DNA of 32,000 bases. It comes from Rariglobus sp. (GTDB lineage: Bacteria; Verrucomicrobiota; Verrucomicrobiia; Opitutales; Opitutaceae). The position numbers were made by a program, and so were the translations under genes. The stretch is taken from assembly GCA_031412735.1 (NCBI GenBank), contig JANODO010000050.1, positions 1 to 32,000 of the forward strand, written 5' to 3'. The first letter of the stretch is position 1. Each line of letters starts with the position of its first letter. Positions 7,907 to 23,933 of this stretch are shown piece after piece. The notes under the pieces are model-generated. The model was not told the origin of the DNA, did no database searches, and saw nothing but the letters and a program-made list of their open reading frames with translations.

Positions 7907-7925
7907 AATCAGCGATGCATTGAGC

Positions 7926-8318: not shown

Positions 8319-8358
8319 CCAGGTGGCTCGCGAAGGATACGAAGGGAGCGAAGGTAAA

Positions 8359-8598: not shown

Positions 8599-8801
8599 GT
8601 AGTTGCCTGGCTGGGTGTTTGTGGGCGGGACCGTGTGAAGCAGTGGGTGACGTGGATTGGTTTATCCCAGCGGATGAGCGGTGATCAGTCGCGGGCGTTC
8701 ATCGTCCGGGCGGACTTCCCAGACCGTGCGGATGCAGGGATTGCTTTTGTCGGGAGTCGGTAGGTTGCAATCTAGAGTGTATTTGGTGCCGAAGCCTGTG
8801 T

Positions 8802-11800
8802 TCACGGAGACCTCTCCACTTGATTGGCCAGCAGGGTGGCGACTACCGGATTACCGGTCGGTGCCGCCAACTCCACGGCGTAGCCTTTGCCTCCTTCGTA
8901 AATACTTACGACTGCGCCAATGGTGCCGACTGCAAAATCGTGCCCCTCTTCGACGACGGGCACTAGTAAACGCACGCAATCGTGCTCGGCAATGGCGGGC
9001 GCGATGGAGAGTTGGTAGTGGGAATCCAGCTCGGTGTGCAGGGATAGGATCGCGGCGATGCGCCGGACGTGGTGGGTGAACTGCTGCGCCTCGTCACTCG
9101 TAAGGGCGCGACCCAGCAAATCGACCTCGCGGTAGCTGAGCCACTTCTTGAGCACCTGATAGCCGCCGAGGGTGTAACTCCAGACCGCCACGGGAACGTC
9201 TTTCCACCGGGTGGTGGCGTTGAGGTGGATGTCGATAAAGCCGTCGCCGCGCGTGCCGGTGCTTGTCTGGCCGGGGCCGGGCATGGTGACGCCGTTTTGA
9301 CCGGCGTAGCCCCAACGTGCTTTGAGCGAGAGGTCGGGGGTCTTCTCACCCGGTTTGAGGGCGAGTTCACCGAGGCCTTTGAGGTCGACGCGGACTTTGA
9401 GGCTGGTGACGCCTTCGACGGGCGTTTCAGGATCGAGTAGTGCGGCGATTTTGCGGCCAAGGCCGGCTCCTGAGCGGAGAACTTGGGCGGTCTTCGGCAG
9501 GGGCACGCGGGGCCAATCCTGTCTGAGAGCCCCGGCATTTTCTTCCCGATAAAGCGGTGCGTGTAGCACGGCGACGATGTGGAAGAACAGGTCTTCTGGT
9601 CCGGCCTCCAATTCCGCCAGATAGTCCTTCGCGAAATCCGTCAGGTTGGGCTGCGGGCCGCTAGGCCCCGATGATTCGAAGAGATCGGACTGCGGTTCTT
9701 TGGAAGCTGCGTCGTCAGCCGCCGCGTGTAGATAGAGCGGGAAGAAATTGGAAAGCCCGTTGGCGAAGTTATCAGCGAGCAGAGTTGTCACGGTGCCACG
9801 ATCCCAGCCGTCTCGGCTTTCTGACTTCCTTGCCTCAATCCAGAAGTTTCCAGAAAAGACGTGTTTCACATACTCGGGACGTTTCTCGTCGAGGAGTTTT
9901 GTGTGTGGATTCCAATATAGCCAACGGGCATCGAAGGGGCGATAAAGGTAGCGGAAGAAGCGACCACTTTCGATGCCGTGATTTTGCAAATCTCCCCTAA
10001 CCTTCTTCGCATCAAAGCGGCCTGAGTCGTCCTTCAGTCCTGCTAGCCTGCCATCAAGCGATGAGAACGATACCTTTGGGTTGAAGTAGCGTTGCATACG
10101 TTCTTCCAACGCGCCGCGAGCAACGTCTATCAGCGAATCATCGCGACTAGTTTTCACTCCAGGAAAAGACGTGCCTAACAATTCGGGGAGCAGTTGCCAA
10201 TTTTCGTAGTCTTCACGAACGCCTATTGGGATGAACGGCAGCCCGAATTTGAGCGCGGGTTTTAGAGCCTGAGACTGCTTTGGGATTTCCAAAGAGACTT
10301 CCAACTCTGCTCGCTTCAATTTTCCCCACCAATGCCGAAAGTTAAGATCCGCGTGAGGATTGTAGGCAGTCGCATCGGTATCCGCCGCACGCGGCTTGCC
10401 CTTCGGTCTGCGCTCCATGAGCGCGATAGCCGTTCCCACCTGAATGCCTTCGCGATTTTTCTCGGTCGAGAAGACGCTTGGGTCGGGCTGACCATCGGGT
10501 GTCTTTTTGCCGGTCTTGTATTTATCGCCGTTGAGGCAGTCGATGGTGATGGAGTCGAAGACCTCCATGAAGCGCTCGCGCATGCCGGTGTGGGACAGGC
10601 CGTCGAGCCAGGAGTAATTGCTAATGTAGCAGATGATGCCCTTGGCATCGGGACGAGGCCGGCCGGGTTTGTCGTCATCGGACTTCGGCACGCCTTCGGC
10701 GATGCGGCGCTCGGCCATCCGGAAAAAGCGGACGTAAAGATCGTTGAGTCCCTGACCCTGCGGAGCGGCAACCGTCTTCACGTGGCGGTAGGATTCGGAG
10801 AGATTGCGTTCCTCTTCTACGGCCAGGCCGGCGTAGCCGTCGTAGGGAGGGTTGCCGAGGACGACGATGATCTCGGACTTCTGCTTCACGTGGTCGGCGG
10901 CGTCGCGTTCGTCTGAAAACTCGGAGAATAGGACTTGGTCTTTCGGGTGTTTGACGGGCACCCAGCCGGTGAGGGCGTTGGTTAGGAATACCCCGGCGCG
11001 CTCGTCCTTACCGTGGTCGAGCTCGGCGCCCCAGCGGGTGAGCATGAGGTCGATCTGGAGATGGGAGACGACGTAGGGCGCGGGCAGGAGCTCAAAGCCG
11101 TAGAGGCGATGTTTGGCGACTTCGCGGATTTTCAGCGCAGCTTGGGCTTCGCCGTAGCCCTCGACGAGGCGGCGGCGGATGAGTTTGAGCGTCTCGACGA
11201 GGTAGGCACCGGTGCCGCAGCAAGGATCGAGGACGACGACGGAGGGATCGGCGAGGCCATCGGGTAGGTTGAAGTTTTCGCGCAGGGCGCGGTCCACGCT
11301 GCCGACCATGTAGCGGACGATCTCGGGCGGGGTATACCAGACGCCGAAATCCTTGCGCAGCTCGGGGTCGAACTCGGCGAGGAAGGGCTCGTAGAAGTAT
11401 TGCACGGCCTCGCCCATGTCGTAGCGAGCGAAGAAACTGTTGCGCTCCACGCGGGCCAGGCACTCCTCGGTCCAGTCGAGCACCTCTTCAAGGTTGAGCG
11501 CACGGATTTTTTTAGGATCGCTGGCGAGCTGGATGAAGAGCGTGCGCAGGATAGGAAGGCCGAGATGCTGGGCGGAGAGTCGCCACTGGAAACGCTCGCC
11601 GGGTTTGGGGTGGGCTTCGTGCCAGAGCACCCAAGCGGAGAAGATGCCGTAGAAGAGCGTCTGGATGAGCGTGGACTGGAAGAAATGGACGCCCTTCTCG
11701 CCCTCGAAGTGAACGCCAAGAGCGTCGGACAGGGCCTTTTTCACCGGTTCAAGCGTGCCCATCGGGGCCACCTCCACGCGGGCGCGAGCTTCACGGGCAT

Positions 11801-12386
11801 AGCTGGCGAGGTAAGTGGCGAGGTCTTGAGGTGTGGCGATACGTGCGGTGGAGAGCAGGGCGCGGCGGAGGAATTGCCACAGGCGCTCATTCTCGGGGTG
11901 CTGGGGATTCTGGCGGAGGGTGTGAACCTTATCCCAGAATTCGTTTTCGCTGGCGGCGACGATGTAGCGTTCGCCTTGGACCGCCTTGCCGTCTTTCCAT
12001 GACCAGAGCGAGAAGGCGCGGTAGTTGGTAAGGAGGATCTGGCCGTAGTGCTCCAGGTAATTGCGGACCTGCGGGGTCGATTCGAAGGAGGAGAGATCCT
12101 TCTCGATGGGTTTGATTTCGACGACGCCGCGCTCGGGTTTGAGTTGGCCGAAAAGGGAGGCGCGGTCGTCGCCGTATTTCTTGAGTTCTTTGGCGGAGAA
12201 GAGGCCGCCGTCGGGAATACCGGCTCCGCTGTTCGCCGGATGGATTACGGCTGTGATCTTGGGTTTGAGGGTTTCTCCGACCGCGTTGAGCAGTTTGGAG
12301 AGTGCGGGATAGCCGCTGGTCTCCGGCACGCCGATGCCTGAGATGCTATGAAGTTCTACAAGGTAGTCGGCGACGGGGGATGACAT
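8802..12386 (-). CDS. single-chain Type IIG-like N6-adenine DNA methyltransferase (MmeI/YeeA/Type ISP-C-terminal family), possible N-terminal PD-ExK nuclease, C-terminal DUF4926-like domain
   Basis: 1194 aa with an ATG start. YFYEPFLAEFDPELRKDFGVWYTPPEIVRYMV is the block typical of MmeI/PglX/ISP methylases. VVLDPCCGTGAYL is SAM motif I and VVLGNPPYDGYAG is catalytic NPPY motif IV. WSYTLGGYQVLKKWLSYRE matches the conserved C-terminal domain of Type ISP/YeeA enzymes. No helicase or Mrr domain is apparent. The last ~65 aa (VRLLVPVVEEGHDFAVGTIGAVVSIYEGGKGYAVELAAPTGNPVVATLLANQV) look like DUF4926. Confidence 0.85.
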   Translation of the reverse strand: MSSPVADYLVELHSISGIGVPETSGYPALSKLLNAVGETLKPKITAVIHPANSGAGIPDGGLFSAKELKKYGDDRASLFGQLKPERGVVEIKPIEKDLSSFESTPQVRNYLEHYGQILLTNYRAFSLWSWKDGKAVQGERYIVAASENEFWDKVHTLRQNPQHPENERLWQFLRRALLSTARIATPQDLATYLASYAREARARVEVAPMGTLEPVKKALSDALGVHFEGEKGVHFFQSTLIQTLFYGIFSAWVLWHEAHPKPGERFQWRLSAQHLGLPILRTLFIQLASDPKKIRALNLEEVLDWTEECLARVERNSFFARYDMGEAVQYFYEPFLAEFDPELRKDFGVWYTPPEIVRYMVGSVDRALRENFNLPDGLADPSVVVLDPCCGTGAYLVETLKLIRRRLVEGYGEAQAALKIREVAKHRLYGFELLPAPYVVSHLQIDLMLTRWGAELDHGKDERAGVFLTNALTGWVPVKHPKDQVLFSEFSDERDAADHVKQKSEIIVVLGNPPYDGYAGLAVEEERNLSESYRHVKTVAAPQGQGLNDLYVRFFRMAERRIAEGVPKSDDDKPGRPRPDAKGIICYISNYSWLDGLSHTGMRERFMEVFDSITIDCLNGDKYKTGKKTPDGQPDPSVFSTEKNREGIQVGTAIALMERRPKGKPRAADTDATAYNPHADLNFRHWWGKLKRAELEVSLEIPKQSQALKPALKFGLPFIPIGVREDYENWQLLPELLGTSFPGVKTSRDDSLIDVARGALEERMQRYFNPKVSFSSLDGRLAGLKDDSGRFDAKKVRGDLQNHGIESGRFFRYLYRPFDARWLYWNPHTKLLDEKRPEYVKHVFSGNFWIEARKSESRDGWDRGTVTTLLADNFANGLSNFFPLYLHAAADDAASKEPQSDLFESSGPSGPQPNLTDFAKDYLAELEAGPEDLFFHIVAVLHAPLYREENAGALRQDWPRVPLPKTAQVLRSGAGLGRKIAALLDPETPVEGVTSLKVRVDLKGLGELALKPGEKTPDLSLKARWGYAGQNGVTMPGPGQTSTGTRGDGFIDIHLNATTRWKDVPVAVWSYTLGGYQVLKKWLSYREVDLLGRALTSDEAQQFTHHVRRIAAILSLHTELDSHYQLSIAPAIAEHDCVRLLVPVVEEGHDFAVGTIGAVVSIYEGGKGYAVELAAPTGNPVVATLLANQVERSP

Positions 12387-12431
12387 GGGTGATAAAACGG
12401 GTGAGCTGGGGCGCGGTCGGCACCATTTACG

Positions 12432-12698
12432 TTATGCCGCGATCATGTTGACGGCGTCGTTGTAAACCCAGCCCTCGTTGCCGGTGTTGTAGAGCGGGTC
12501 GATGAAGATGCAGTTCACCTGGCCGGCGTAGAGCGGGAGAAGGGTTTTGAGGGCGTGGAGATTGTCGCCCTCGACGAGAAGATTGCCGGAACCGGGGTCG
12601 CCGCAGCCGAGTTCGGGCACGTCGCGGAGCAGCCGGTAGGGGACTTCGCGGTGGTGGTTAGCGACGGCGTCTTTGCCGATCCAGGAAAGCGTGGGCAT
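12432..12698 (-). pseudogene. N-terminal remnant (88 aa) of a Type III Mod-like DNA methyltransferase
   Basis: LSWIGKDAV ... LLVEGDNLHALKTLLPLYAGQVNCIFIDPLYNTGNEGWVYND matches the N-terminal LxWxGK ... GDNLxxLK ... IYIDPPYNTG block of Type III Mod enzymes. The catalytic DPPY reads DPLY, and the ORF stops right after this block, 45 nt before the large methyltransferase. Confidence 0.7.
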
Positions 12699-12824
12699 GG
12701 TTCGTTTTGATCCTGCGAGCCGATGAAGGAACTCTGCAACTACGGGATACGTCCATTTTAGGTCGCCGAGGTGAGCGCGGCCTAGTCCTGCTCCAGCATC
12801 TGGTGTTTTTGGGTTAGGGGATTG

Positions 12825-12945
12825 TTAACCATAAAGACACGGAGGCACAAAGGACTCACAAAGACCGGAAAACTGACGATTACAGCAGAGGGCAATCGAG
12901 GCTGAACTTTGTGAGGCCTTTGTGCCTTGGTGTCTTTGTGGTGAA
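12825..12945. repeat. compound hairpin element E (CACAAAG flavour, 39-nt arms), inverted relative to D
   Basis: TTAACCATAAAGACACGGAGGCACAAAGGACTCACAAAG (12825-12863) pairs 34/39 with 12907-12945. The asymmetric ends are TTAACC on the left and GGTGAA on the right, swapped relative to element D. Confidence 0.88.
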
Positions 12946-13067
12946 TTCGGGATAGCTGATGTTCGGCATATGCCTAATGATTGGGTTTTTATTGCAAAAA
13001 ATCAGAGGCAGCGAGGATTCACGAAAACCGGAAATGTATAACCTTATAGGTAATACTTTGGTTTGGG

Positions 13068-14039
13068 TTAGCCGCCGATGGCGGTCATGGGGCGGTCGGG
13101 GATGTAGTCGGATTGGAAGGTGTGGTCCTTGGGCTTGTTGGCGATGGCTTCGGTGAGCAACGCGTCGAGGTGGGCGTGGCCGGCGCGGACCGGGGCGAGC
13201 AGGTCAATCTCGCCGTGGCGGCCCAAACAGGGGCGGAGCTTGCCGTCGGACGTGAGCCGGAGCTTGTTGCAGGTGCCGCAAAAATCGGGAGTGGTGAGCG
13301 CGCCGATGAAGCCGACGAGGGCACCGTTTTGCGCGCGGGCGTAGCGGGCGGGGCCGTGGCCGGTGCGGTAGTCAGGGAGGGTTTCGAGGGGGCCCAGTTC
13401 GGATTCGATGCGGGCGCGGGCGCCTTCGCAGGAGAGGAAATTTTCGGAGCTGAGGACATCGGTGCGCGTGAGCGGCATCAGCTCGATAAAGCGCACCGGG
13501 GTGCGGTGCTCGGCGGCGAAACGCACGAGGGGCACGAGCTGGTCTTCGTTGACGCCGCGCATAAGCACCACGTTGAGCTTCACGACTTCGAAATCGGCGG
13601 CGAGGGCGGCATGGATTCCGCCGAGGGCGTCGGCGAGGCGGCCGCCGGTCACGCGGCGGTAGGCGTCGGCGTCGAGTGCGTCGAGGGAGACGTTGACGGA
13701 GGTGACGCCGGCGTTGCTGAGGTCGCGGGCGACGGCGGCCAGGCGCGTGCCGTTGGTGGAAAGACCGAGCGAGGCGGTGGTGGGCAACGCGGCGATGCCG
13801 GCGGCGATCGAGACGAGGTCGGGTCGGAGCAGCGGTTCGCCGCCGGTGAGGCGGAATTTGCGGAAGCCGAGCGAAGACGCGGCCGTGGCGATGCGGATGA
13901 GTTCGTCGGCGGTGAGGTGGTCGGGGCGCTGCGCCCAGCCTTTGTAGCCTTCGGGCATGCAGTAGAGGCAGCGCTCGTTGCACCGGTCGGTGACGGAGAT
14001 ACGCAGGTAATCGATGTGGCGTCCGAAGGGATCGGTCAT
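13068..14039 (-). CDS. moaA: GTP 3',8-cyclase MoaA (radical SAM)
   Basis: RISVTDRCNERCLYCMPEG carries the CxxxCxxC radical-SAM cluster. FRLTGGEPLLRPD and the C-terminal cluster CGTCNKLRLTSDGKLRPCL are also present. Confidence 0.95.
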   Translation of the reverse strand: MTDPFGRHIDYLRISVTDRCNERCLYCMPEGYKGWAQRPDHLTADELIRIATAASSLGFRKFRLTGGEPLLRPDLVSIAAGIAALPTTASLGLSTNGTRLAAVARDLSNAGVTSVNVSLDALDADAYRRVTGGRLADALGGIHAALAADFEVVKLNVVLMRGVNEDQLVPLVRFAAEHRTPVRFIELMPLTRTDVLSSENFLSCEGARARIESELGPLETLPDYRTGHGPARYARAQNGALVGFIGALTTPDFCGTCNKLRLTSDGKLRPCLGRHGEIDLLAPVRAGHAHLDALLTEAIANKPKDHTFQSDYIPDRPMTAIGG

Positions 14040-14082
14040 GGGAATTTCAGAGCGTAACCCGTGCTAGACGCGGAGCACGGAC

Positions 14083-14130
14083 AAAAAAGGACGCGACGAA
14101 GGGATATTTTCATGAAACCCATCATCGCGC
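14083..14130 (-). terminator. rho-independent terminator candidate ending the nap/globin transcription unit
   Basis: The minus strand reads GCGCGATGATGGG-(14-nt loop)-CCCTTCGTCGCGT followed by CCTTTTTTG. The stem is 13 bp with one mismatch and two G-U pairs. It lies between the DUF2249 gene and moaA. Confidence 0.4.
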
Positions 14131-14157
14131 CGCGTGATTTTTCAGCGAGCGGGGTGT

Positions 14158-14496
14158 TTAATGGTGGCTGCTTCCGCAGCCGCCGGGAAGCGCACCGGCG
14201 GCGAGGGCGGACATGCTGGCGGGATTAGCGGCGACACGCGTGATGCGGACCGCCGCGAAGTCGTCTTCGTTGACCAGATAATCCCAGCTGAAGCAGCCCG
14301 GGGCAATCGCTTCGAATTGGTAACGCAGGGGCTCGGGCGCGTGGCCGTTGACGAGGACGAAGCTCGCGCCGGTGACGAGTGCATCGGCGCGTTCCAAAAT
14401 GAGCGGGTGCTTGGTGCGGCAAGGAATGTCGCGGGCGTCGAGAAGCTCGGCGGCGGGAACAGTGGCGAGGGCGGGATGAAGTGTGGTGGTGAGCAT
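14158..14496 (-). CDS. DUF2249 domain-containing protein
   Basis: ELLDARDIPCRTKHPLILERADALVTGASFVLVNGHAPEPLRYQFEAIAPGCFSWDYLVNEDDFAAVRITRV fits the DUF2249 pattern (LDVR ... HP ... L ... G ... L ... H.P.PL..Q ... W.Y). ATG 14496 is chosen; the track start at 14577 is GTG. Confidence 0.65.
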   Translation of the reverse strand: MLTTTLHPALATVPAAELLDARDIPCRTKHPLILERADALVTGASFVLVNGHAPEPLRYQFEAIAPGCFSWDYLVNEDDFAAVRITRVAANPASMSALAAGALPGGCGSSHH

Positions 14497-14679
14497 AAAA
14501 AAGAAGGAGAACGTGAAGATAGCAGCGGGAGGCGAGCGGGTGGGGATCAGGCCCCGGGGCCCACGTGGGTTTGTCACCTATTAAGTGACAAACTTGGCTT
14601 GAGGAGGATGGAGCGGGTTGGCGGGGGGGAGGGAGGGGCGAGCGGCGGCGTAGATGGGTGACGCGCGGGGCGGGATCGG

Positions 14680-15096
14680 TCAGGGTTGGGCGGCGCCGGC
14701 TTGCATGGTTTCGGCGAGCAACGTGTAGACGGAGGTCCAGGCTTCTTTGACTTCGGCGGTGAAGGCGGCACCTAAACCTTGGGCGAGGGTCCAGAGGAGG
14801 GCGGCTCCGACCGTCGCGTAATGGGCGGTTTCCACGCCGTAAGCGATGTGGCGTTTGCCCAGACCGCGCACGGCGGGGACGAGGGCGTCGAGGTTATCGA
14901 GTCCGCGCACGGCCATGGTGATCATCGTCATGAGTTTCTTGCCCTGTTCCTTGGGATCGGACGTGAAGAGGGGCTTCAGGGTGGGATCGAGTTCGAAGAG
15001 TTTGCCGTAGAAGAGCGTGGCGGCGGTCTCGGCGATGGGCTCGACTTGGGTCCAGGTGGATTGAACGAGGTGTTTCTGGTGTGCGGTGATGCTCAT
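14680..15096 (-). CDS. single-domain globin (HGbI-like, PF00042-type)
   Basis: LVQSTWTQVEP ... LFYGKLFELDPTLKPLF ... QGKKLMTMITMAVRGLDNLDALVPAVRGLGKRHIAYGVETAHYATVGAALLWTL ... FTAEVKEAWTSVYTLLAETM aligns by eye, nearly block for block, with my recollection of Methylacidiphilum Hell's Gate globin I. Confidence 0.85.
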   Translation of the reverse strand: MSITAHQKHLVQSTWTQVEPIAETAATLFYGKLFELDPTLKPLFTSDPKEQGKKLMTMITMAVRGLDNLDALVPAVRGLGKRHIAYGVETAHYATVGAALLWTLAQGLGAAFTAEVKEAWTSVYTLLAETMQAGAAQP

Positions 15097-15164
15097 GGGT
15101 GGTGGTTAGGGGTTGTGTGTGTCTGCTGCTAAAGGGAGCAGATGCGGGGCTGATGGCGGGACCG

Positions 15165-15500
15165 TTACGGAGCCAGCAAAGTGAGGATAAATGTAGAGGG
15201 CTCGTCGGCCCGGATTGCGTGCGGGAGTTGCGGGGGCATGTGCAACAACGCGCCGGGGCGGAGGGTTTCGGGTTTTCCGTCGAGCGTGAGGTGGAGCGTG
15301 CCGGTGAGGACTTGGATGAGGGCGTGGTTGGGGTTGGTGTGTTCGGTGAGCTCCTGCCCTGCGTCGAAGGCGAACAACACGGCCTTGCCTCCCGTGGTTT
15401 TGAGGAGCGTGCGGCTGGTGATGCCGGCGGTGCTCGGCGTGGCGAGGGGCGCCAGCGGCACGATTGCGCACTGGTCGGGGATGAAAACGGAGAAGGCCAT
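15165..15500 (-). CDS. cupin domain-containing protein
   Basis: 111 aa. The cupin motifs are GQELTEHTNPNHALIQVLTGTLHLTLDG and LRPGALLHMPPQLPHAIRA. Confidence 0.72.
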   Translation of the reverse strand: MAFSVFIPDQCAIVPLAPLATPSTAGITSRTLLKTTGGKAVLFAFDAGQELTEHTNPNHALIQVLTGTLHLTLDGKPETLRPGALLHMPPQLPHAIRADEPSTFILTLLAP

Positions 15501-15511
15501 GGGAGGGAAAG

Positions 15512-15567
15512 GGCTGAAGGACTGAAGGACTGAAGGACTGAAAGGCTGAAGGCCTGAGGGGCTGGAG
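15512..15567. repeat. tandem octamer array, about 7 units of (A/C)CTGAAGG
   Basis: GCTGAAGG ACTGAAGG ACTGAAGG ACTGAAAGG CTGAAGG CCTGAGGGG CTGGAGG, in the 96-nt gap between the CopD-like gene and the cupin gene. No inverted partner is present. Confidence 0.85.
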
Positions 15568-15596
15568 GTCGGTTATCGTGTGACGGACGGGATTCG

Positions 15597-16046
15597 TCAG
15601 GGCAGCGCGAGGCCGCCGAAGCGGAAGCGGAGGCCGACGTAAACCAAGGCGACCGAGAGGACCGTCACGGGAACGATGTGCCAGGCGAGGGCGTGGAGGT
15701 TATGGCGTCCGAGCTTGGGGATGATGCGCAGGCGCGCATCGAGGGCCAGGGCGACCGTGAGCAGGAGTAGCGCGATTTTGGCGAGTGCGGCGACGGCGAT
15801 GGGGTTGTCGAAGTTGAGCAGGCCTTCAAAGCCCGGAAAATAACGCCGCGTGAGCTCCAAACCGGTGAGCAGTTGGGCACCCAGTGCGACCAGGCCGACG
15901 GGTTCGTAACGGTCTTTAAAGGACTGAATGAGCGCGGGGTCGCGTCGGCGCAGGGCGAGCGGGAGCACGCCGAGGGCGAGCACGAGGTGACCGCCGGTCC
16001 AAATGGCGGCGCCGAGCAGGTGAACGAAGAGGAGCCAGAAATGCAT
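15597..16046 (-). CDS. CopD-like integral membrane protein (4 predicted TM helices)
   Basis: MHFWLLFVHLLGAAIWTGGHLVLAL and three further hydrophobic segments. The pattern resembles small CopD-family membrane proteins. The assignment is tentative. Confidence 0.5.
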   Translation of the reverse strand: MHFWLLFVHLLGAAIWTGGHLVLALGVLPLALRRRDPALIQSFKDRYEPVGLVALGAQLLTGLELTRRYFPGFEGLLNFDNPIAVAALAKIALLLLTVALALDARLRIIPKLGRHNLHALAWHIVPVTVLSVALVYVGLRFRFGGLALP

Positions 16047-16061
16047 GGTCGGGTGTGCGGG

Positions 16062-16481
16062 TTAACGGGCCGGGTCGGCGGATGGATTGGCGGAAGGTGG
16101 AGCGGCCTGAGCGATGATCTGCCGCAGGCGTTGGCCGATGGTCTCGGCGACGGCGATGAGGTCGGTGGCTTCGGTCGGCGCGAGGTGGGCGTGGCAATGA
16201 CGCGACCAGAGGCCGAGCCAGGCGGAGAAGTGGCGTTCTTCGAGTCGAAGGGGCACGTGTTTCCACGGCATGCCGCCGTTGTAGAGCCGGGGTCCGCCGG
16301 TGATGCCGGACCAGAAATCGGCGATCTTTTCGAGATGTGACGGCCAGTGCTCGATGTTCGCCGCGAAGATGGGGGCGATCTCGTTGTGTTGCCGGACGTC
16401 GGCGTAGAAATAACGCAGCAAGTTGAGCAAAGCGGGGCGGCCGCCGATGCGTTCGTAGAGGGGGGCGGACGGTTCGCTCAT
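16062..16481 (-). CDS. truncated haemoglobin (group III / Ctb-like; group II not excluded)
   Basis: LYERIGGRPALLNLLRYFYADVRQHNEIAPIF ... KIADFWSGITGGPRLYNGGMPWKHVPLRLEERHFSAWLGLW fits the trHb 2-on-2 pattern. ATG 16481 overlaps the upstream stop (ATGA). Confidence 0.78.
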   Translation of the reverse strand: MSEPSAPLYERIGGRPALLNLLRYFYADVRQHNEIAPIFAANIEHWPSHLEKIADFWSGITGGPRLYNGGMPWKHVPLRLEERHFSAWLGLWSRHCHAHLAPTEATDLIAVAETIGQRLRQIIAQAAPPSANPSADPAR

Positions 16482-16954
16482 GAGGAGGCCGGGGCGATGG
16501 GTTCGATGGTGGCAACGATATCCGCTTCGCGGATACGCACCAAGGTGAGGCCGGCGGGCCGGCGCAGGAGCGTGTCGCACCAGGTGTGTCCGTCGTAGCT
16601 GTAGCGGATCTGCACGCCGAGCAGCAGGCCGGCGGCGAGGCGGGTGCGGGCGGTTTCGAGCGTAATGGTATCGGTGCCGGTGTGGCTGCGGGCGGCGTGT
16701 TTGGGGATAACCGCGTGGACGGTGGTGCAGGCGGCCAGGTCGCGGAAAAGGGCGTCCGTCGTCGCGACATCGAGGAGGGTTTGCTGGAGCGGCGGGAGGC
16801 GCAGGGGCTGATCGGAGGAGGTGACCGGGGCGGGGGCGGTGGGAGCGGTGGGAGAGCGTGTCGTCATGAGGGTGGGCGGAGGCGCTGGCTGCCGGAGTGA
16901 ATGCGGCAGGAGTCGGGTGAAGAACTCGCGGCGATTGAGGGTGGGAGCGGGCAT
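16478..16954 (-). CDS. hypothetical protein (158 aa) with an N-terminal NRREFF motif but no hydrophobic signal core
   Basis: ATG 16954 lies 13 nt after the cytochrome stop, and the stop overlaps the trHb ATG, so the gene is locked into the operon. I recognise no family. The long N-terminal extension of the track ORF is an Arg/Pro-rich overlap with the cytochrome gene and is discarded. Confidence 0.5.
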   Translation of the reverse strand: MPAPTLNRREFFTRLLPHSLRQPAPPPTLMTTRSPTAPTAPAPVTSSDQPLRLPPLQQTLLDVATTDALFRDLAACTTVHAVIPKHAARSHTGTDTITLETARTRLAAGLLLGVQIRYSYDGHTWCDTLLRRPAGLTLVRIREADIVATIEPIAPASS

Positions 16955-16967
16955 CGGCGGGGGAAGA

Positions 16968-17783
16968 TCAGTCCGATCTGGCTGGTTGGGCGGATCGGAC
17001 GGATCCGATGACCGACAGTGGCGGCAGGGTCTCGCGGACGGCGTCGAGCGCGTGGCATTGCAGGCAGTTTTGACGCTGCGGGTGGGTCGTCTTGACGACG
17101 CTGGAGCCACCCGGACCGTGGCAGCTGACGCAGTTTTGGCGCATTGCAGTGGTGTGCGGCATGGTCGGCGGGGCACCGGTGAAGGCGCGCGTGCCGCCGG
17201 CGGGCGCGGGGAGTCCGTTGAAGGCGTTGGCGAGGACGGGCGTGGCTTGCGCGAGTGGGGGTGACGTAAGCGCGGAGCCCGGCCCGGCGGAGGGCGCATG
17301 GCATTGGATGCAACTGGTGTAGGCCGGGTGGCTCATCTGGGGCACGTCGATGCGGTCGATGCGCGTGGGCAGGCCGTGGCAGGCGAGGCAGGAGGTGGAT
17401 TTGTGTTGGTCGATCGGATGCGGGACGGTGGGCGGCGCGCCGGCGTAGGCGCGGCGGGCAGCGCGGCGGGTGAGCAGGGCGACCATTTCCTCAGAGGTGG
17501 GGCGCGGTGTGGCGGCGTTAAAGGCCGGGGCGGGCGGGAGTGTCGCGAGGTCGCTGTGCCAGGCGTGGTTGGGCTGGCGGGTGCGGTCGGCCAAGTCGGC
17601 GTAGTGAGGGGCTTCGGGCGCGGACAAAATCGCCTCGGTGGAGGGTTCCGCGACGAGCGGGCCGCGCCGGTATTCGGCGGCGGAGCGGTCAGTCTGAAGC
17701 AGGCCCATGAAGTAGCCGCTCACGCCGGTGGTGAAGGCGATGAGGGCGGCGACAACCGCGAGCTTGCGCATCGGGATCTTCAT
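16968..17783 (-). CDS. membrane-anchored tetrahaem cytochrome c built from two NapB-like dihaem repeats
   Basis: There are four CxxCH motifs (CLACH, CIQCH, CVSCH, CLQCH). Each pair is preceded by the NapB-type motif APPT(V/M)PH. The N-terminal TM segment is LAVVAALIAFTTGVSGYFMGLL. ATG 17783 overlaps the napA stop (ATGA). Confidence 0.7.
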   Translation of the reverse strand: MKIPMRKLAVVAALIAFTTGVSGYFMGLLQTDRSAAEYRRGPLVAEPSTEAILSAPEAPHYADLADRTRQPNHAWHSDLATLPPAPAFNAATPRPTSEEMVALLTRRAARRAYAGAPPTVPHPIDQHKSTSCLACHGLPTRIDRIDVPQMSHPAYTSCIQCHAPSAGPGSALTSPPLAQATPVLANAFNGLPAPAGGTRAFTGAPPTMPHTTAMRQNCVSCHGPGGSSVVKTTHPQRQNCLQCHALDAVRETLPPLSVIGSVRSAQPARSD

Positions 17784-20200
17784 GACGCGGCCGTGCGGCG
17801 GATGATGCGCACGGCGCACTTTTTGTAATCAGGCTCCTTGGAGATCGGGCAGACGTCGCCGAGAGTGATGGTGTTGATCAGAAAATTTTGATCGAAGAAC
17901 GGCACGAAGACGGAGCCGCGCGGGGGTTGGCTGCGGCCGTTGAGCCAGACGGGGAGGGCGAGGCGACCGCGGCGGGTTTCCAGCGTAGCCATGTCGCCGT
18001 TGCGCAAGTCGAGCGCGGCGGCGTCGGCGGGATTGAGTTCGACGTAGGCGTTGGGCATGGAGCCGCGCAGTTGCGGCACGCGCATGGTCATCGTGCCGCT
18101 GTGCCAGTGCTCGATGACGCGACCCGTGCAGAGCCAGAACGGGTAATCGGCGTCGGGTTCCTCGGTGGCGGGCTCGTAGGGGTTGAACCAGATGAGGGCG
18201 CGGTCGTCCTTGGTGACGGAGTGGTAGAACTGGATGCCGGCGCCTTTTTTGACGAACGGGTCGCTGAACTCCATGAAGCGGAAACGCGTTTCTTTGAAGG
18301 AGCCGTCGGCTTGTTCGACCACCGGCCAGCGCAGGCCGCGGGTCTTCACCAGCTCGTCGTAGGGGGCGAGGTGTTTGTGTTTATGGTAGGTGAAACGCCG
18401 ATACTCCTCGAAGAGCGCGCGGTCGGTGTTGATCTCGTAGTAGCGGGCGAAGTCCCAAGCGGGCACCTCGCGTCCCTCGGCGTCGTGAAACGTGAAGAGG
18501 AACTTGCCGTCTTTGTCCTGCATGCCCGGGTGACCGAGTTCGAACAGGCGACGGGCGAGGGCGATGGTCATCCAAGCGTCGGGACGCGCCTGACCGGGCG
18601 GATCGACCTGCTTGAACCATTGTTGGGTGCGTCGCTCGGAGTTGCCGTAGACGCCGTTCTTTTCGACCCAGAGCGCGGCCGGGAGAACCAAGTCGGCGAG
18701 CGCGGTGGTGGCGGTGGGGTAAACGTCGGAGACGATGAGGAACTTGTCGGCGAGACCGGCCTTGCCGTTGAACGTGCGGGCGAGGTCGGGGAGCGTTTGG
18801 CCCGGGTTGGTGACCTGGACGAAGATCGTGTGGATGTCGCCTCCCTTGTCGGTGGGCGTGCAGAACTTCTCCCAGAGCTGGATCGTGTGGTAGCCCGGCT
18901 TGGGGTTGATGCGGCCGGCGGGGACATGCCAGAGCTCCTCGCACTCGGCGCGGTGCTCGGGGTTGGCGACGAGCAGGCCGCCGGGAAGGGCGTGGCACAA
19001 CGTGCCGACCTCGCGGGCGGTGCCGCAGGCGGACGGTTGGCCGGTGAGCGAGGTGGGCGCGTCGCCGGGGCGGCCCCAGTGTCCGGACAGCAAGTGGATG
19101 CCGTGAACCAGGCGGTTGATGGCGGTGCCTCGCGTGTGCTGGTTCATGCCCATGCACCACAGGCTGGTGATGCGCAGTGACGGATTTCCAAAGAGATCGC
19201 CGAGCAGGCGTATCTTTTCCTCGGATACGCCGGAGAGTTTGGAGACGTAGGCGGGGGTGTAGAGAGCGAGCGCCTCACGGTAGGCCTCGAACGTCATGGG
19301 CTGGCCGTTGAGCGAGACGGGCGCGGTGTCCTGGCGGAAGTTGCAGTGTTTCTCGACGAACGCGCGGTTCCAGGTGCCGTTGGCGAGGAGCAGGTGGGCG
19401 ATGCCGTTAGCGATGGCGAGGTCGGTTTGCGGGCGGAACTCCAGGTAGTGGTCCGCGTATTCGGTGGTGCGGGTGCGGCGCGTGCCCAGGTCGATGAGTG
19501 TGACCTTTTCGCCGCGCGTGCGGCGGTCGATGAAACGAGAAAAGAGGACCGGGTGCATCTCGGCGGGGTTGTTGCCCCAGAGGATAATCACATCGGCCGC
19601 GTCGAGGTCGTCGTAGCAACCGGCGGGTTCGTCCACGCCGTAAACCGAGATGTAGCCGGTGACGGCGGACGACATACACAGGCGGGCGTTGGGCTCGATG
19701 TGGTTGTTGGCGAGGCCGGCTTTCATGAACTTCTGCGCGGCGTAACCCTCGGGGATCGTCCATTGTCCGCTGCCGTAGAAACCGAAGCCGGCGGGTCTCT
19801 GCATGATGCGGCGGGCCATGACGTCGATGGCTTCCTCCCACGTGATGTTTTCGAGCTGCCCGTTGCGGCGGAGTTGCGGGGTGGTGAGGCGGTCTTGGCC
19901 GTAGAGAATGCCGCCGACGTGGTAGCCCTTCAAGCAGAGCAGGCCTTTGTTCACCTCGGCCTGTGGATCTCCTTGGATGGCGACGACACGGCCGTCTTTG
20001 ACGCCGACACGCACATGGCAGCCGGTGCCGCAGAAGCGGCAAGGAGCTTTGTCCCAGCGCACGCCGTCGGCGGTGACGGTGGCGGTCGGTGAGGTGGCGA
20101 AGGCGGGTTCACCGGGCGCGGGGGCCGCGCCGAGTCTGCGAGCGATGACGGCGCTGGCGGCGGCGAGGGCGGTCGTGCGAAGGAAGTCGCGGCGTTGCAT
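17780..20200 (-). CDS. napA: periplasmic nitrate reductase catalytic subunit NapA
   Basis: Twin-arginine signal MQRRDFLRTTALAAASAVIARRLGA and N-terminal FeS motif CRFCGTGCHVRV ... LCLKG. It is an 806-aa Mo-bisMGD enzyme with NapA-like length and blocks, flanked by NapD-like and NapB-like genes. Confidence 0.93.
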   Translation of the reverse strand: MQRRDFLRTTALAAASAVIARRLGAAPAPGEPAFATSPTATVTADGVRWDKAPCRFCGTGCHVRVGVKDGRVVAIQGDPQAEVNKGLLCLKGYHVGGILYGQDRLTTPQLRRNGQLENITWEEAIDVMARRIMQRPAGFGFYGSGQWTIPEGYAAQKFMKAGLANNHIEPNARLCMSSAVTGYISVYGVDEPAGCYDDLDAADVIILWGNNPAEMHPVLFSRFIDRRTRGEKVTLIDLGTRRTRTTEYADHYLEFRPQTDLAIANGIAHLLLANGTWNRAFVEKHCNFRQDTAPVSLNGQPMTFEAYREALALYTPAYVSKLSGVSEEKIRLLGDLFGNPSLRITSLWCMGMNQHTRGTAINRLVHGIHLLSGHWGRPGDAPTSLTGQPSACGTAREVGTLCHALPGGLLVANPEHRAECEELWHVPAGRINPKPGYHTIQLWEKFCTPTDKGGDIHTIFVQVTNPGQTLPDLARTFNGKAGLADKFLIVSDVYPTATTALADLVLPAALWVEKNGVYGNSERRTQQWFKQVDPPGQARPDAWMTIALARRLFELGHPGMQDKDGKFLFTFHDAEGREVPAWDFARYYEINTDRALFEEYRRFTYHKHKHLAPYDELVKTRGLRWPVVEQADGSFKETRFRFMEFSDPFVKKGAGIQFYHSVTKDDRALIWFNPYEPATEEPDADYPFWLCTGRVIEHWHSGTMTMRVPQLRGSMPNAYVELNPADAAALDLRNGDMATLETRRGRLALPVWLNGRSQPPRGSVFVPFFDQNFLINTITLGDVCPISKEPDYKKCAVRIIRRTAAS

Positions 20201-20236
20201 GGGTGGGTAATAAACGAAGACGAGGGAAACGCGGAG

Positions 20237-20494
20237 TTAGCCGGCGGTGGCGGGGAGCTCGACGAAGACGACTTCGACCAGCTCGACGCCGGGGACGGCT
20301 TCGATGGCCCGGAACGCTCCGTAAGGATCGTCCGAGGTGAGGACGGCGGGCAGCCAGTGCTCTTGCGCGAGACCCAGATCGAGCCCGGGATTGCGTGACA
20401 ACTGGAGCAACCCCGCGGCTCGAAGCTCGGGCAGTTTGGATAGGGTGATGATGAGCGAACTCAGGCCGGGCTCAGTCGTAAAATTGGCTTCCAT
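20237..20494 (-). CDS. napD: NapD-like chaperone
   Basis: 85 aa directly upstream of napA. LSSLIITL ... LPAVLTSDDPYGAFRAIEAVPGVELVEVVFVE follows the NapD pattern (ISSLVV ... VVxxE ... I ... GV ... LVY). Confidence 0.65.
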   Translation of the reverse strand: MEANFTTEPGLSSLIITLSKLPELRAAGLLQLSRNPGLDLGLAQEHWLPAVLTSDDPYGAFRAIEAVPGVELVEVVFVELPATAG

Positions 20495-20587
20495 CGATAT
20501 ACCCTAAAAGGCAGGAGACGTTTATACCAGAATAAAAGATAAAGAACTCTTGTATTGGTGGCACTCTTTCGCCTTTTTTTGGACAAG
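20495..20587. promoter_or_regulatory. AT-rich divergent control region between napD and the cytochrome/NrfCD operon
   Basis: This is the only strongly AT-rich stretch in this part of the window. It contains two direct TATACC copies (20498-20503 and 20523-20528) and AAGAACTCTT. No promoter or operator could be assigned with confidence. Confidence 0.3.
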
Positions 20588-21277
20588 ATGAAGGGCCGCT
20601 TAATCCTGTTACCCCTGGCAAGCGTGGTATTGCTGGCGCTCGGCGGGCAATGGCTCCTCGGCGAGGCGAAGCTCGGGGGAGCCCGTGAGTTCTCCGCCGA
20701 GGTGGTTTCGGTGGGGCAGCCCGCCAAGCCCACCAAGCCCGCCGCTCGCGCTGAAGTGCCGCCGCACCGTCCGGCGGGTTATCAGCCGAAAGTCGCGACG
20801 GGCCTGATCGACCATCATGGCAACGCGGTCGGTGTCGCCTGCATGACCTGTCATGCGACCAAGACGCCGAATCTCGAGGCTGGTCGCGAGGGTAGGGTGC
20901 CGGCGGAGTTCCATCAGAAGCTGGTGTATGCGCACGGAGAGCAGAGCTGCTTGAGTTGCCACAACAGCGAGGACTACGACGCGCTGCGGCTGGCGGACGG
21001 CCGCAAGCTGGCTTTCGCCGACGCGCAAAAGCTGTGTCAGCAATGCCATGGTCCGCAGACGCGCGACTACCTCCACGGTTCGCATGGCGGCATGAGAGGT
21101 TACTGGGACAAAACCAAGGGCGAACGCACCCGGCTTACCTGCACCGATTGCCATGATGCGCATGCGCCGGCCTACCCCGCGTGGACGCCGGTCTTCGCGC
21201 CGAAGGACGGCGGGGCGCTCCAGCAGAAAGCCCGCGAGGAAAAGTCCAACCACTCCACCACCACCCATGATCAATAA
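20588..21277 (+). CDS. tetrahaem c-type cytochrome (periplasmic or anchored), first gene of a cytochrome-NrfC-NrfD module
   Basis: Four CxxCH motifs (CMTCH, CLSCH, CQQCH, CTDCH). The N-terminal hydrophobic segment is MKGRLILLPLASVVLLALGG. The track start at 20555 is TTG; ATG 20588 is used. Confidence 0.8.
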   Translation: MKGRLILLPLASVVLLALGGQWLLGEAKLGGAREFSAEVVSVGQPAKPTKPAARAEVPPHRPAGYQPKVATGLIDHHGNAVGVACMTCHATKTPNLEAGREGRVPAEFHQKLVYAHGEQSCLSCHNSEDYDALRLADGRKLAFADAQKLCQQCHGPQTRDYLHGSHGGMRGYWDKTKGERTRLTCTDCHDAHAPAYPAWTPVFAPKDGGALQQKAREEKSNHSTTTHDQ

Positions 21278-22223
21278 TACCCCCCCAGCCGGTCCCGCGT
21301 CCGCGCCCGAAGCCGAGCCGGCCGGCGGCATGACGCGGCGCACGGCGATCAAAGCGCTCGGTGCCACGCTCGGCGCGGCGGCCTTCGCGCAAGCCATCGC
21401 CCCGCTCACCGAGTGGGCGGAGAACATGTCGCTCGACGAGTATCTACAAAAGCACTACCGCGAGCTTTCACCTTTTGATCTCGGCGTGGTCATGGCCCGC
21501 ATGGAGCAAATCACCAAGGAGGAGACCGGCGTGGACGTGCACATCGGCGACTATCGCCCGCAGCCCGGGGTGAAGTTCGGCTACGCGCTGAACCTGTCCG
21601 TGTGCGTGGGCTGCCGCCGCTGTGCCAAGGCGTGTCACATCGAGAACAACCACGACCGCCCCTCCGGCAATAGCTACATCCGCGTTTTGGAAATGGAGAA
21701 AGGCTCACTCGATCTTGCGAAGGGGCGCGTCAACTACGACAAGCCGGTGCCCCACCCCGACAAGTTCTACATGCCGGTGCAGTGCCAGCAGTGCGACAAA
21801 CCACCGTGCGTCTCGGTCTGCCCGGTCGAGGCGACCTGGAAGGAATCCGACGGCATCGTGGTCGTGGACTACAACTGGTGCATCGGCTGCCGCTACTGCG
21901 AGGCGGCCTGCCCGTATCATGCGCGCCGCTTCAACTGGACAAAGCCGCAGGTGCCGGCGGCGGAGATCAATCCCGACCAGGGTTACTTGTCGAACCGCCT
22001 GCGTCCGCAAGGTGTGATGGAGAAGTGCACGTTCTGCCTGCACCGCTCGCGCCAGGGTAAGTTACCCGCCTGTCTCGAAGCCTGCCCGACGGGCGCGCGC
22101 GTGTTTGGCAACCTGCTCGATCCCGAGTCGGAGATCCGCTGGGTGCTGAAAAACAAGCGCGTGTTTGTCCTCAAGGAAGAGGTCGGCACGCAGCCCAGCT
22201 TCTTCTACTTCTTCGATGAATAA
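21267..22223 (+). CDS. 4Fe-4S ferredoxin-type subunit, NrfC/PsrB/DmsB family, with Tat signal
   Basis: Tat motif MTRRTAIKALGATLGAAAFAQA. Four cluster motifs: CVGCRRCAKAC, CQQCDKPPCVSVCP, CIGCRYCEAACP, CTFC ... CLEACP. The start overlaps the cytochrome gene end. Confidence 0.85.
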   Translation: MINNTPPAGPASAPEAEPAGGMTRRTAIKALGATLGAAAFAQAIAPLTEWAENMSLDEYLQKHYRELSPFDLGVVMARMEQITKEETGVDVHIGDYRPQPGVKFGYALNLSVCVGCRRCAKACHIENNHDRPSGNSYIRVLEMEKGSLDLAKGRVNYDKPVPHPDKFYMPVQCQQCDKPPCVSVCPVEATWKESDGIVVVDYNWCIGCRYCEAACPYHARRFNWTKPQVPAAEINPDQGYLSNRLRPQGVMEKCTFCLHRSRQGKLPACLEACPTGARVFGNLLDPESEIRWVLKNKRVFVLKEEVGTQPSFFYFFDE

Positions 22224-23511
22224 CGCCCGCGTCGCCGAACAGTTCACCAGCTACTGCCGTTTCCTCTGGAAGGCCGTCTGCGACGCCACCGACGGCTCGT
22301 GGTGGTTCTACGCATGGATGATCCTGCTCACCGCGCTCTCGCTTACGGGATTGCACGCGTGGGCGGTGCAGGTGCGCGACGGCCTCATCGTCACCGGGAT
22401 GAGCGATCATGTGTCGTGGGGGCTGTATATCGCCAATTTCACGTTCATGGTCGGCCTCGCGGCGGGTGGCGTGATGATGGTGATCCCGGCGTATCTGTAT
22501 CACGACCACGAGATGCACGACCTGACCATCGTGGGCGAGTTGCTGGCGGTGGCGGCCATCGTGATGAGCATCTGTTTCGTCGTGGTCGATATGGGCCGGC
22601 CGGAGCGGTTCTGGCACATGTTCCCTATCGTGGGGCGCTTCAACTGGCCGGTCTCAATGCTCACGTGGGACGTGCTGGTGTTGAACGGCTACCTCGGCCT
22701 CAACCTGCACATCTGCGGTTATCTCCTCTACAAGCGGTTTCGCTGCGAACGGCCGAACTCGAAGTGGTATGTGCCCTTCGTGTATCTCTCGATTTTTTGG
22801 GCGATCTCCATCCACACGGTGACGGCGTTTCTTTATTCGGGTCTTGGGGGGCGTCCGCTGTGGAATACCGCGTTGCTGGCGCCGCGCTTCCTGGTGACCG
22901 CGTTTATTGCGGGGCCGGCGTTTATCATCGTGCTGCTCTTTATCCTGCGACGCTTCGGGGGCGTGCCGATTGCGGCGAGACCGGTGCAGGTGCTGGTGAA
23001 TATCGTGCGGGTGACGCTGCTTATCAATTTGCTCATGGTGGCGTCGGAGTTGTTCACCGAATTGTATGCGGGCGGGGCGCATACCGCGTCGTCGCATTAT
23101 TTGTTTTTCGGGCTTCACGGGGCCAATGCGCTGGTGCCGTGGATTTGGAGTGCGGTGGCGATGGGTATCATCGCTACGGTGATGTTCCTGCGGCCTGGCG
23201 TGGCGGGGCGTCCGGTGTGGCTCACGTTGGCCTGCGTGTTGGCGTTTGCCGGCATCTGGATTGAAAAAGGCATGGGCTTGATTGTGCCGGCGTTCATCCC
23301 CTCGACGTTGCATGAGATCGTGGAGTATTTCCCGAGTTTGGTGGAGTGGCAGATCATGGCGGGCATCTGGGCCTGGGGCCTGCTCATCCTCACCGTGATG
23401 CTAAAAATCGCGCTGCCCATCCTGCGCCAGCCGCATCCCGAGGAGAATTTCCCAACGAGGGTTTGCGCCACTTCGCCGGCCGGTAACACTGGAGGCCATT
23501 CGCATTTATGA
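22216..23511 (+). CDS. NrfD/PsrC-family polytopic membrane quinol-interacting subunit
   Basis: 431 aa with about 10 hydrophobic helices (WMILLTALSLTGLHAW, GLYIANFTFMVGLAAGGVMMVIPAY, and others). It is translationally overlapped with the FeS gene upstream and with the Rrf2 gene downstream. Confidence 0.82.
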   Translation: MNNARVAEQFTSYCRFLWKAVCDATDGSWWFYAWMILLTALSLTGLHAWAVQVRDGLIVTGMSDHVSWGLYIANFTFMVGLAAGGVMMVIPAYLYHDHEMHDLTIVGELLAVAAIVMSICFVVVDMGRPERFWHMFPIVGRFNWPVSMLTWDVLVLNGYLGLNLHICGYLLYKRFRCERPNSKWYVPFVYLSIFWAISIHTVTAFLYSGLGGRPLWNTALLAPRFLVTAFIAGPAFIIVLLFILRRFGGVPIAARPVQVLVNIVRVTLLINLLMVASELFTELYAGGAHTASSHYLFFGLHGANALVPWIWSAVAMGIIATVMFLRPGVAGRPVWLTLACVLAFAGIWIEKGMGLIVPAFIPSTLHEIVEYFPSLVEWQIMAGIWAWGLLILTVMLKIALPILRQPHPEENFPTRVCATSPAGNTGGHSHL

Positions 23512-23933
23512 TCCGCTTCGGTAAAACCGCCCAGACCGCCATCTCCGCCATGAGCTTGCTCGCGGAGGTTTACGACGGTGGGAAAACCAAGTTGAGTTCG
23601 CTGGAGATTGCGGAACGGCGCGGGTTGCCGCAGCCCGTGGTCGCCAAGGTTCTCACGATCGTCTCCTCGCTCGGGTTGGTGGACGGCACGCGTGGACCGG
23701 GCGGCGGTTATTGGTTGCGCAAGCCGCCGGAGAAAATTGCGTTACTCGACATCGTGGAGGAATTCGAACGGCAGGACAGCCGTATCATGTGTCCCTTTGG
23801 GCCGGATTGGTGTGGGCATGGCGCGCCGTGTCCGATGCACGACTCGCTGGCGCGGATGGACAACGAGTGGACGACTTACCTTCGCGATACGCGGTTGAGT
23901 GTGTTTCAGAAAACGGCTGCGGCTAAACGCTGA
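23508..23933 (+). CDS. Rrf2-family transcriptional regulator (NsrR/IscR-like, three C-terminal Cys)
   Basis: The N-terminal wHTH is AISAMSLLAEVYDGGKTKLSSLEIAERRGLPQPVVAKVLTIVSSLGLVDGTRGPGGGYWL. The Cys ligand region is CPFGPDWCGHGAPCPMH. The ATG overlaps the NrfD-like stop (ATGA). Confidence 0.85.
   Translation: MIRFGKTAQTAISAMSLLAEVYDGGKTKLSSLEIAERRGLPQPVVAKVLTIVSSLGLVDGTRGPGGGYWLRKPPEKIALLDIVEEFERQDSRIMCPFGPDWCGHGAPCPMHDSLARMDNEWTTYLRDTRLSVFQKTAAAKR

Follow-up and report, generated by a model that had tools for sequence, protein, structure and literature searches.

Textbook periplasmic nitrate reductases (Nap) draw their electrons from quinol by one of two routes, either through NapC, as in the napEDABC operons of Paracoccus and Rhodobacter, or through NapGH, as in Wolinella (napAGHBFLD) and E. 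coli (napFDAGHBC). The nap locus of Rariglobus sp. described here carries the genes of neither route. It lies in a stretch of 32,000 nucleotides ("the window" denotes the whole of this stretch), positions 1 to 32,000 of contig JANODO010000050.1 (C50) of assembly GCA_031412735.1, a metagenome-assembled genome (MAG) of 250 contigs and 95% completeness. The nearest protein relatives of the window genes are found in Opitutaceae, Verrucomicrobiota. On the minus strand, napD and napA are followed by napB2, a gene for a membrane-anchored tandem NapB with four haems. On the plus strand, beyond a short shared control region, a gene trio encodes a tetrahaem cytochrome c, an iron-sulfur (FeS) protein and an NrfD-family integral membrane subunit, and a regulatory gene, rrf2, comes next. 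From comparative evidence, and as a preliminary description of this DNA had proposed, the trio is very probably the quinol dehydrogenase of this Nap, doing the job of NapC or NapGH. The locus as a whole would, with good confidence, constitute a complete and self-contained unit for periplasmic nitrate respiration, wired in a third way.

Parts of this arrangement have been met before. The genome note of Lacipirellula parvula PX69 mentions, in a single sentence, an operon in which NapA is accompanied by iron-sulfur and NrfD-like membrane subunits (Dedysh et al. 2020, PMC6995999). It omits the cytochrome, the tandem NapB, the regulator, the distribution and the lack of NapC or NapGH, and holds no functional test. 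Adhaeretor mobilis, a member of Lacipirellulaceae like L. parvula, carries the locus type described here (L063). Poriferisphaera heterotrophicis consumes nitrate and its napAB genes are nitrate-induced, the trio not being discussed (PMC10945688); a congeneric Poriferisphaera genome (L006) has exactly this locus type. In cable bacteria, some Desulfobulbales, and Gamma- and Betaproteobacteria, a "DsrOhPh-tetrahaem" locus has been documented, the function of which its authors list as unknown, speculating on quinol-to-periplasm transfer (BMC Genomics 2026, PMC13047784). In composition, this locus matches the trio: both encode a bis-His cytochrome with four haems, an FeS protein akin to DsrO and an NrfD protein akin to DsrP, and both lie outside dsr operons. 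No link to nap appears in the accessible part of its description, whereas the trio of Rariglobus and those of 74 other loci adjoin napA. The catalogue of NrfD complexes by Calisto and Pereira assigns ion pathways to the NrfD family in general and never mentions Nap. Deferrivibrio, Thermosulfurimonas and Caldithrix exhibit other Nap wiring, by NapGH, NapM or Rieske/cytochrome b. No functional study of the trio-Nap pairing was found in the full-text literature searched, which did not cover one NrfD-family review. The pairing had been suspected of being under-described, and the passing sentence on L. parvula is all that this literature yielded. The locus is a conserved and apparently uncharacterised Nap variant, in which enzyme and module are each of a familiar kind but are combined in a way that textbooks leave out.

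The nap operon contains the napD, napA and NapB-type cytochrome genes expected from the first inspection. NapA (17780..20200, minus strand) is the catalytic subunit of the periplasmic nitrate reductase, with a molybdenum-bis(pyranopterin guanine dinucleotide) (Mo-bisPGD) centre, a [4Fe-4S] cluster and a twin-arginine translocation (Tat) signal. Against the curated NapA equivalogs it reaches 878.2 bits for NF010055 (cut-off 904) and 854.4 bits for TIGR01706 (cut-off 930.55), both narrow misses with full-length coverage. The solved NapAB-type enzymes of C. necator (3ML1), E. coli (2NYA) and R. sphaeroides (1OGY) align with it over its full length, the best relative being 3ML1 (E 2.5e-225, residues 46-801). 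Its motifs comprise the Tat sequence RRDFL, the FeS cysteines of CRFCGTGC and the Mo-ligand Cys within NARLCMSSAV. The last two line up with E. coli NapA 2NYA, in which the Mo-ligand motif reads NARHCMASAV.

The open reading frame (ORF) directly upstream of napA (20237..20494, minus strand; 85 residues) is assigned to napD, a divergent Tat-proofreading chaperone for NapA. Its own Pfam search gave no match, and 16 of its 35 positional orthologues match the NapD family PF03927. Its AlphaFold2 (AF2) model, with a predicted local distance difference test (pLDDT) score of 90.6, retrieves E. coli NapD, 2PQ4 and 2JSX, as the top two Foldseek matches in the PDB. A NapD is recognised as a small ferredoxin-fold chaperone encoded directly upstream of napA, and this ORF is of that kind.

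The third gene, napB2 (16968..17783, minus strand), starts within the napA stop (ATGA overlap) and belongs to the NapB family (PF03892, 34.2 bits, cut-off 25.1). It is more than the "NapB-like cytochrome" it had been called. Canonical NapB is soluble, whereas this protein is duplicated and membrane-anchored: two tandem APPxxPH...CxxCH...CxxCH units follow a single N-terminal transmembrane (TM) helix (residues 8-26), with CXXCH at residues 132, 158, 218 and 240. The four haem motifs, the four distal His and both APPxxPH motifs are invariant among 46 orthologues, the same number on which the haem ligands of the tetrahaem cytochrome were judged. Shared with canonical Nap are therefore the NapA catalytic core with its Mo-ligand Cys and FeS motif, the NapD chaperone and the NapB-type haem domain. 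The differences are that NapF, along with NapC, NapG and NapH, was not found in the 95%-complete genome, that NapB is an anchored tandem, that quinol oxidation is assigned to the trio, and that a dedicated Rrf2 regulator is present. In the record of Aeoliella sp. SH292, a 251-residue tblastn match to the tandem NapB (L005:2345-3070, minus strand) falls where only short ORFs were called, and napB2 appears to be unannotated or miscalled there.

The first protein of the trio, encoded at 20588..21277 on the plus strand, is a membrane-anchored tetrahaem cytochrome c with a TM helix at residues 5-23, presumed to be the electron exit of the module. Its four CXXCH motifs together with His109, His116, His166 and His192 are invariant among the orthologues. 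Its matches to multihaem Pfam families are weak, and the NrfB and NapC/NirT models stay below their cut-offs. The second protein (21330..22223, plus strand) is a Tat-exported FeS protein of the NrfC/DsrO/PsrB type with four [4Fe-4S] clusters (PF13247, E 6e-21). Its 297 residues hold the Tat motif TRRTAI and 16 Cys forming four cluster motifs, with Fer4 domains only. An alternative start at 21267 would overlap the stop codon of the cytochrome gene. Among solved structures, it is related to PsrB (2VPW), ArrB and the FeS domain of ActB. The third protein (22216..23511, plus strand) is a DsrP-like integral membrane subunit of the NrfD family (PF03916, E 8e-38, 131 bits, cut-off 25.8), with about 10 TM helices and a presumed quinol site. 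Sequence searches yield no close solved relative for it, the nearest being ActC at E ~1e-8. The AF2 model (pLDDT 90.6) finds its best Foldseek matches in ActC of alternative complex III (ACIII), with template modelling (TM) scores of 0.71-0.76 over ~430 residues; ActF and the 8-helix PsrC rank below. As ActC superposes best on the NrfD-like model, and as the relatives of the FeS protein are PsrB, the ActB FeS domain and ArrB, the trio is a minimal ACIII-like or NrfBCD-like quinol:cytochrome module devoid of a catalytic subunit. All redox subunits of the locus have periplasm-directed signals or anchors, and complete cofactor motifs.

Two characterised complexes come close to this module. With ACIII (ActABCDEF; 6F0K, 6BTM, 8K9E), the trio shares the logic of an anchored multihaem cytochrome, a four-cluster FeS domain and a 10-helix quinol-oxidising NrfD subunit. 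It departs from ACIII in that its FeS protein spans 297 residues versus ~1000 in ActB and is without the molybdopterin-like domain, that its cytochrome is tetrahaem rather than pentahaem, that ActD, ActE and ActF are missing, and that rrf2 follows nrfD. Identity with ACIII was rejected on the lack of the Mo-like ActB domain and of ActDEF. In E. coli NrfBCD, similarly, a multihaem cytochrome, an NrfC-type FeS protein and NrfD feed a soluble periplasmic nitrogen-oxide reductase from quinol. That cytochrome carries five haems versus four here, its NrfD has eight helices versus about 10, and its partner is NrfA versus NapAB. The NrfBCD equivalogs remain far below their cut-offs (NrfB 18.6-23.8 bits against 167-184; NrfC, TIGR03149, 123 against 378; NrfD likewise). 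Identity with NrfBCD was rejected on these scores and on the pairing of NrfA with NrfH in this genome. Geobacter Cbc4 (CbcSTU, GSU0068-0070) presumably also resembles the trio in architecture.

The link between trio and Nap emerges from their joint distribution. In a phylum-level survey of 401 Verrucomicrobiota genomes (NrfD-like proteins at E <= 1e-60, NapA at E <= 1e-100), 15 have a NrfD-like relative and nine have NapA, all nine being among the 15. The distance between napA and nrfD is below 5 kb in each of these nine genomes. Their layouts are divergent with Rrf2 (five genomes), divergent without Rrf2 (one) or co-directional (three), and G302, G352 and G370 exhibit a single co-directional operon napA-napB-cyt-FeS-nrfD. 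G099, the only other sampled genome of the same genus, lacks both NapA and the NrfD-like gene, which suggests that the nap-trio cluster is gained or lost as a unit.

The association extends far beyond this phylum. Across species-representative genomes, at least 597 stretches encode relatives, and the best 80 loci (60-86% identity) were examined. They span Verrucomicrobiota, Planctomycetota, Myxococcota, Methylomirabilota and Sumerlaeia, the Myxococcota carriers including Sorangium cellulosum So ce56 and Archangium violaceum. As sought by tblastn with the window proteins, NapA (64-91% identity) stands beside the trio in 74 of these 80 loci, and the remaining six are all truncated by a contig end, at most ~500 bases upstream of the trio. 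Nearly all of these nap loci have a NapB2-like frame behind napA. Three gene orders are observed: the divergent one, the trio followed by napA-napB (cyt-FeS-nrfD-napA-napB), and napA-napB followed by the trio, the last two orders including single operons. Such varied order points to functionally coupled genes rather than to chance neighbours. The co-occurrence of trio and napA, put forward at the outset as the check to be made, thus holds within the phylum and outside it.

Neither NapC nor NapGH is encoded at the locus, as had been noticed from the DNA alone, and the search for them in the rest of the genome points the same way. The sole NapC/NirT-family (PF03264) gene in the assembly is that of NrfH (TIGR03153, 163 bits, cut-off 134), directly upstream of the NrfA gene on contig C104. 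In this 95%-complete genome, NapH was not found (TIGR02163, best score 18.8 bits, cut-off 213), TIGR00397 gave no match for NapG, and NarG was not found either. As NarG was not found, Nap is likely the only respiratory nitrate reductase here, NrfHA being the likely nitrite consumer. Together, nrfHA (L001:1384-3416) and Nap are predicted to provide a complete route from nitrate to ammonium.

The search for canonical donors was extended to ten further genomes carrying this Nap type. None of them has a NapH that reaches the family cut-off, and none has a NapC/NirT gene adjoining nap, save for NrfH in one Gemmatales MAG. In that MAG, the nap-trio locus ends in an rrf2 gene to which nrfH-nrfA (L074:13094-14915) directly adjoins on the far side, making one nitrate-ammonification island. 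In Archangium, NrfH-NrfA is found on a separate contig from nap. The 100%-complete genome G138 yielded no NapC/NirT member anywhere. G370 contains a NapH-like frame (G370:C1:2700981-2701658) of 115.6 bits, against the cut-off of 213, located ~6.5 kb from napA. It follows a second molybdoenzyme (L015:17521-19776), 27% identical to NapA and ~3 kb from the nap-trio operon, and the two may form part of another reductase system of the periplasm. Two genes downstream of the tandem napB, Poriferisphaera sp. WC338 has a gene for a NIR_SIR-type (assimilatory-type) nitrite/sulfite reductase (L006:537-2072). On account of this neighbour, the present Nap type may serve nitrate assimilation rather than respiration in some lineages.

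In the mechanism proposed for the Rariglobus locus, the 10-helix NrfD/DsrP-like subunit would oxidise (mena)quinol at a site on its periplasmic side. By way of the four [4Fe-4S] clusters in the Tat-exported FeS subunit, electrons would then reach the anchored tetrahaem cytochrome, and from there, via the four haems of the tandem NapB, NapA, where nitrate would be reduced to nitrite. NapD would proofread the Tat export of NapA. The Rrf2 regulator would bind a palindrome in the 93-bp control region and control both operons, and NrfHA, encoded elsewhere in the genome, would take nitrite to ammonium (nitrate ammonification). The gene content, cofactor motifs, export signals and fold assignments are observations, as are the lack of NapC and NapGH in the assembled genome, the strict cross-phylum synteny of trio and napA and the enrichment of the palindrome. 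From these we infer the direction and partners of electron transfer, the quinol specificity, the pairing of Rrf2 with its operator and any proton-motive coupling.

Four observations weigh against this assignment. NapA stays slightly below both NCBIfam NapA cut-offs. In a MAG of 250 contigs that is 95% complete, a napC or napGH may have been missed. The genome has an ACIII of its own (actABC, contig C211), which could supply periplasmic cytochromes. Lastly, distant trios occur without NapA, and the module is not intrinsically Nap-specific.

The fourth observation feeds an alternative in which the trio would act as a general-purpose mini ACIII, a quinol:periplasmic-cytochrome oxidoreductase with several acceptors, Nap being one client or a mere neighbour under a shared nitrate- or nitric oxide (NO)-responsive regulator. 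At 36-62% identity, there are relatives with an unchanged cytochrome-FeS-NrfD order but no napA; their neighbours are large multihaem cytochromes, a cupredoxin-domain protein or haem-biosynthesis genes. In three napA-less Opitutaceae (L008:10008-11702, L009:2799-4508, L010:7751-9493), the paralogous NrfD has an insertion of ~160 residues between query residues 246 and 252. Their trios adjoin large multihaem cytochromes, that at L010:206-2404 being fused to a cytochrome b561-type domain. The generic quinol-to-periplasm role on which PMC13047784 speculates for the DsrOhPh-tetrahaem locus goes in the same direction. On the other side stands the linkage to napA, which is complete in the Nap-linked clades wherever the flank is readable, across phyla, three gene orders and operon fusions. 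Such strict co-inheritance argues for a dedicated partner. Furthermore, NrfA has an NrfH of its own in this genome. Taken together, the general-purpose alternative is improbable as an account of the Rariglobus trio.

The phylogeny of NrfD was taken from a quick maximum-likelihood search with a long outgroup branch and half of the close rows omitted, and its support consists of the Shimodaira-Hasegawa-like approximate likelihood ratio test (SH-aLRT) alone. The main Nap-linked clade comprises 41 of 41 sampled rows (SH-aLRT 99) with phyla intermixed, a mixture that suggests horizontal movement of the whole cluster. A second, separate Nap-linked clade consists of four Verrucomicrobiota, and non-Nap trios branch in between. 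Wiring to NapA is thus predicted for two separate branches of the family, and the family itself would be a general quinol-to-periplasm module with Nap-dedicated branches. Company with a different terminal enzyme had been named beforehand as the finding that would speak against a Nap donor: the Nap-linked clades always have napA where the flank can be read, whereas the distant trios adjoin multihaem cytochromes.

Another possibility is that NapAB is fed by ACIII, or by another quinol:cytochrome c oxidoreductase, via soluble cytochromes, and that the trio serves some unrelated purpose, for example nitrite or NO handling or a Qrc-like reverse input to the quinone pool. The genome holds one other NrfD-family gene only, actC, in a cluster actA-actB-actC at the end of contig C211 (L102:5065-10390). 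This cluster consists of a multihaem actA-like gene, an actB-like gene for a protein of 1137 residues, and an actC-like NrfD gene cut by the contig end, and looks like an ACIII. NrfD-type modules are moreover able to run in the quinone-reducing direction, as does Qrc. Against this stand the separate locations of ACIII (C211) and nap (C50), the membrane anchor of NapB, which is not that of a client of soluble cytochromes, the lack of a catalytic subunit in the trio itself, and the statistics of napA-trio synteny. Such a donor is very unlikely.

A reading of the FeS and membrane genes as dsrO and dsrP, which would make them part of the sulfite-reduction complex DsrMKJOP, is hardly credible and was rejected. 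The DsrP equivalog NF045798 is passed with 412.6 bits (cut-off 350), DsrO NF045797 is approached with 181.9 bits (cut-off 200) and NCBI records give the name DsrP to several orthologues. However, no DsrA match was obtained in the assembly, dsrM, dsrK and dsrJ are not adjacent, nap genes neighbour the trio in every readable locus, the cytochrome has four haems versus three in DsrJ, and the carriers include aerobic Myxococcota and Planctomycetota. With DsrA not found and dsrMKJ not adjoining, the NCBI name "DsrP" is misleading for this NrfD-like subunit.

The control region shared by the two divergent operons (20495..20587) measures 93 bp and has 38.7% GC versus 62.3% for the window, in agreement with the AT-rich segment first noted. 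A sigma-70 consensus scan of the region found no promoter, and no exact inverted repeat was found in it. A palindrome emerged only on comparing orthologous promoters, with the consensus CAAGAAT-N12-ATTCTTG. The Rariglobus copy (20527..20552), CCAGAAT-N12-ACTCTTG, is slightly degenerate. In 1.49 Mb of related loci, with one mismatch per arm tolerated, 24 of the 35 pattern matches lie at most 450 nt upstream of the cytochrome gene.

The plus-strand unit had been described as three genes. Its cytochrome, FeS and NrfD genes are confirmed, and it is in fact extended past the end then given by a fourth gene, rrf2 (23508..23933, plus strand). The start of rrf2 overlaps the nrfD stop by ATGA, an arrangement in which the two genes would be translationally coupled. 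It encodes an Rrf2-family regulator (PF02082, 84.8 bits) with three Cys (Cx6Cx5C), which is probably FeS-sensing. Its scores against the NsrR (26.9 bits, cut-off 182) and IscR (39.4 bits, cut-off 208) equivalogs are far below the cut-offs. Among 88 related loci, rrf2 directly follows nrfD in 29. The palindrome is present in 17 of these 29, versus five of the 59 loci in which rrf2 does not follow nrfD, and at least two of those five have an Rrf2 gene elsewhere in the locus. The palindrome is a probable operator of the Rrf2 regulator, as predicted from this association. Within the control region, a terminator-like hairpin followed by a T-run (GGTGGCACTCTTTCGCC then TTTTTTTGGA) occupies window positions 20557-20583, just 5' of the cytochrome start codon. 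Shuffled sequences average 0.4 such sites, and the hairpin could be an attenuator or due to chance.

A further compositional feature concerns the strand on which nap is encoded. Plus-strand GC skew is strongly positive (0.2-0.33 in 1-kb windows) across window positions 2001-18000, and is unexplained. The nap genes in this interval sit on the minus strand, and their coding strand is therefore C-rich.

The locus type matters for pathway models as well as for annotation. Genomes with napAB only are usually scored as incomplete or as "electron donor unknown". The locus offers a specific and testable Nap donor in at least five phyla, including the closed cultured strains Sorangium cellulosum So ce56 and Adhaeretor mobilis. 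The "DsrP" naming rule, in turn, could yield false sulfur-cycling calls in metagenomes. If the assignment of the trio is true, it would also provide a function for the DsrOhPh-tetrahaem modules, which appear in the 2026 literature as being of unknown function.

A bolder proposal, for now tentative and rather doubtful, is that the trio constitutes a third class of Nap quinol dehydrogenase that is proton-motive, unlike NapC, its NrfD subunit coupling quinol oxidation to charge separation. Were the trio electrogenic in this way, Verrucomicrobiota, Planctomycetota, Myxococcota and other phyla would conserve energy when reducing nitrate in the periplasm, and current assumptions on how much energy Nap-based nitrate ammonification yields in soils and sediments would have to be revised.

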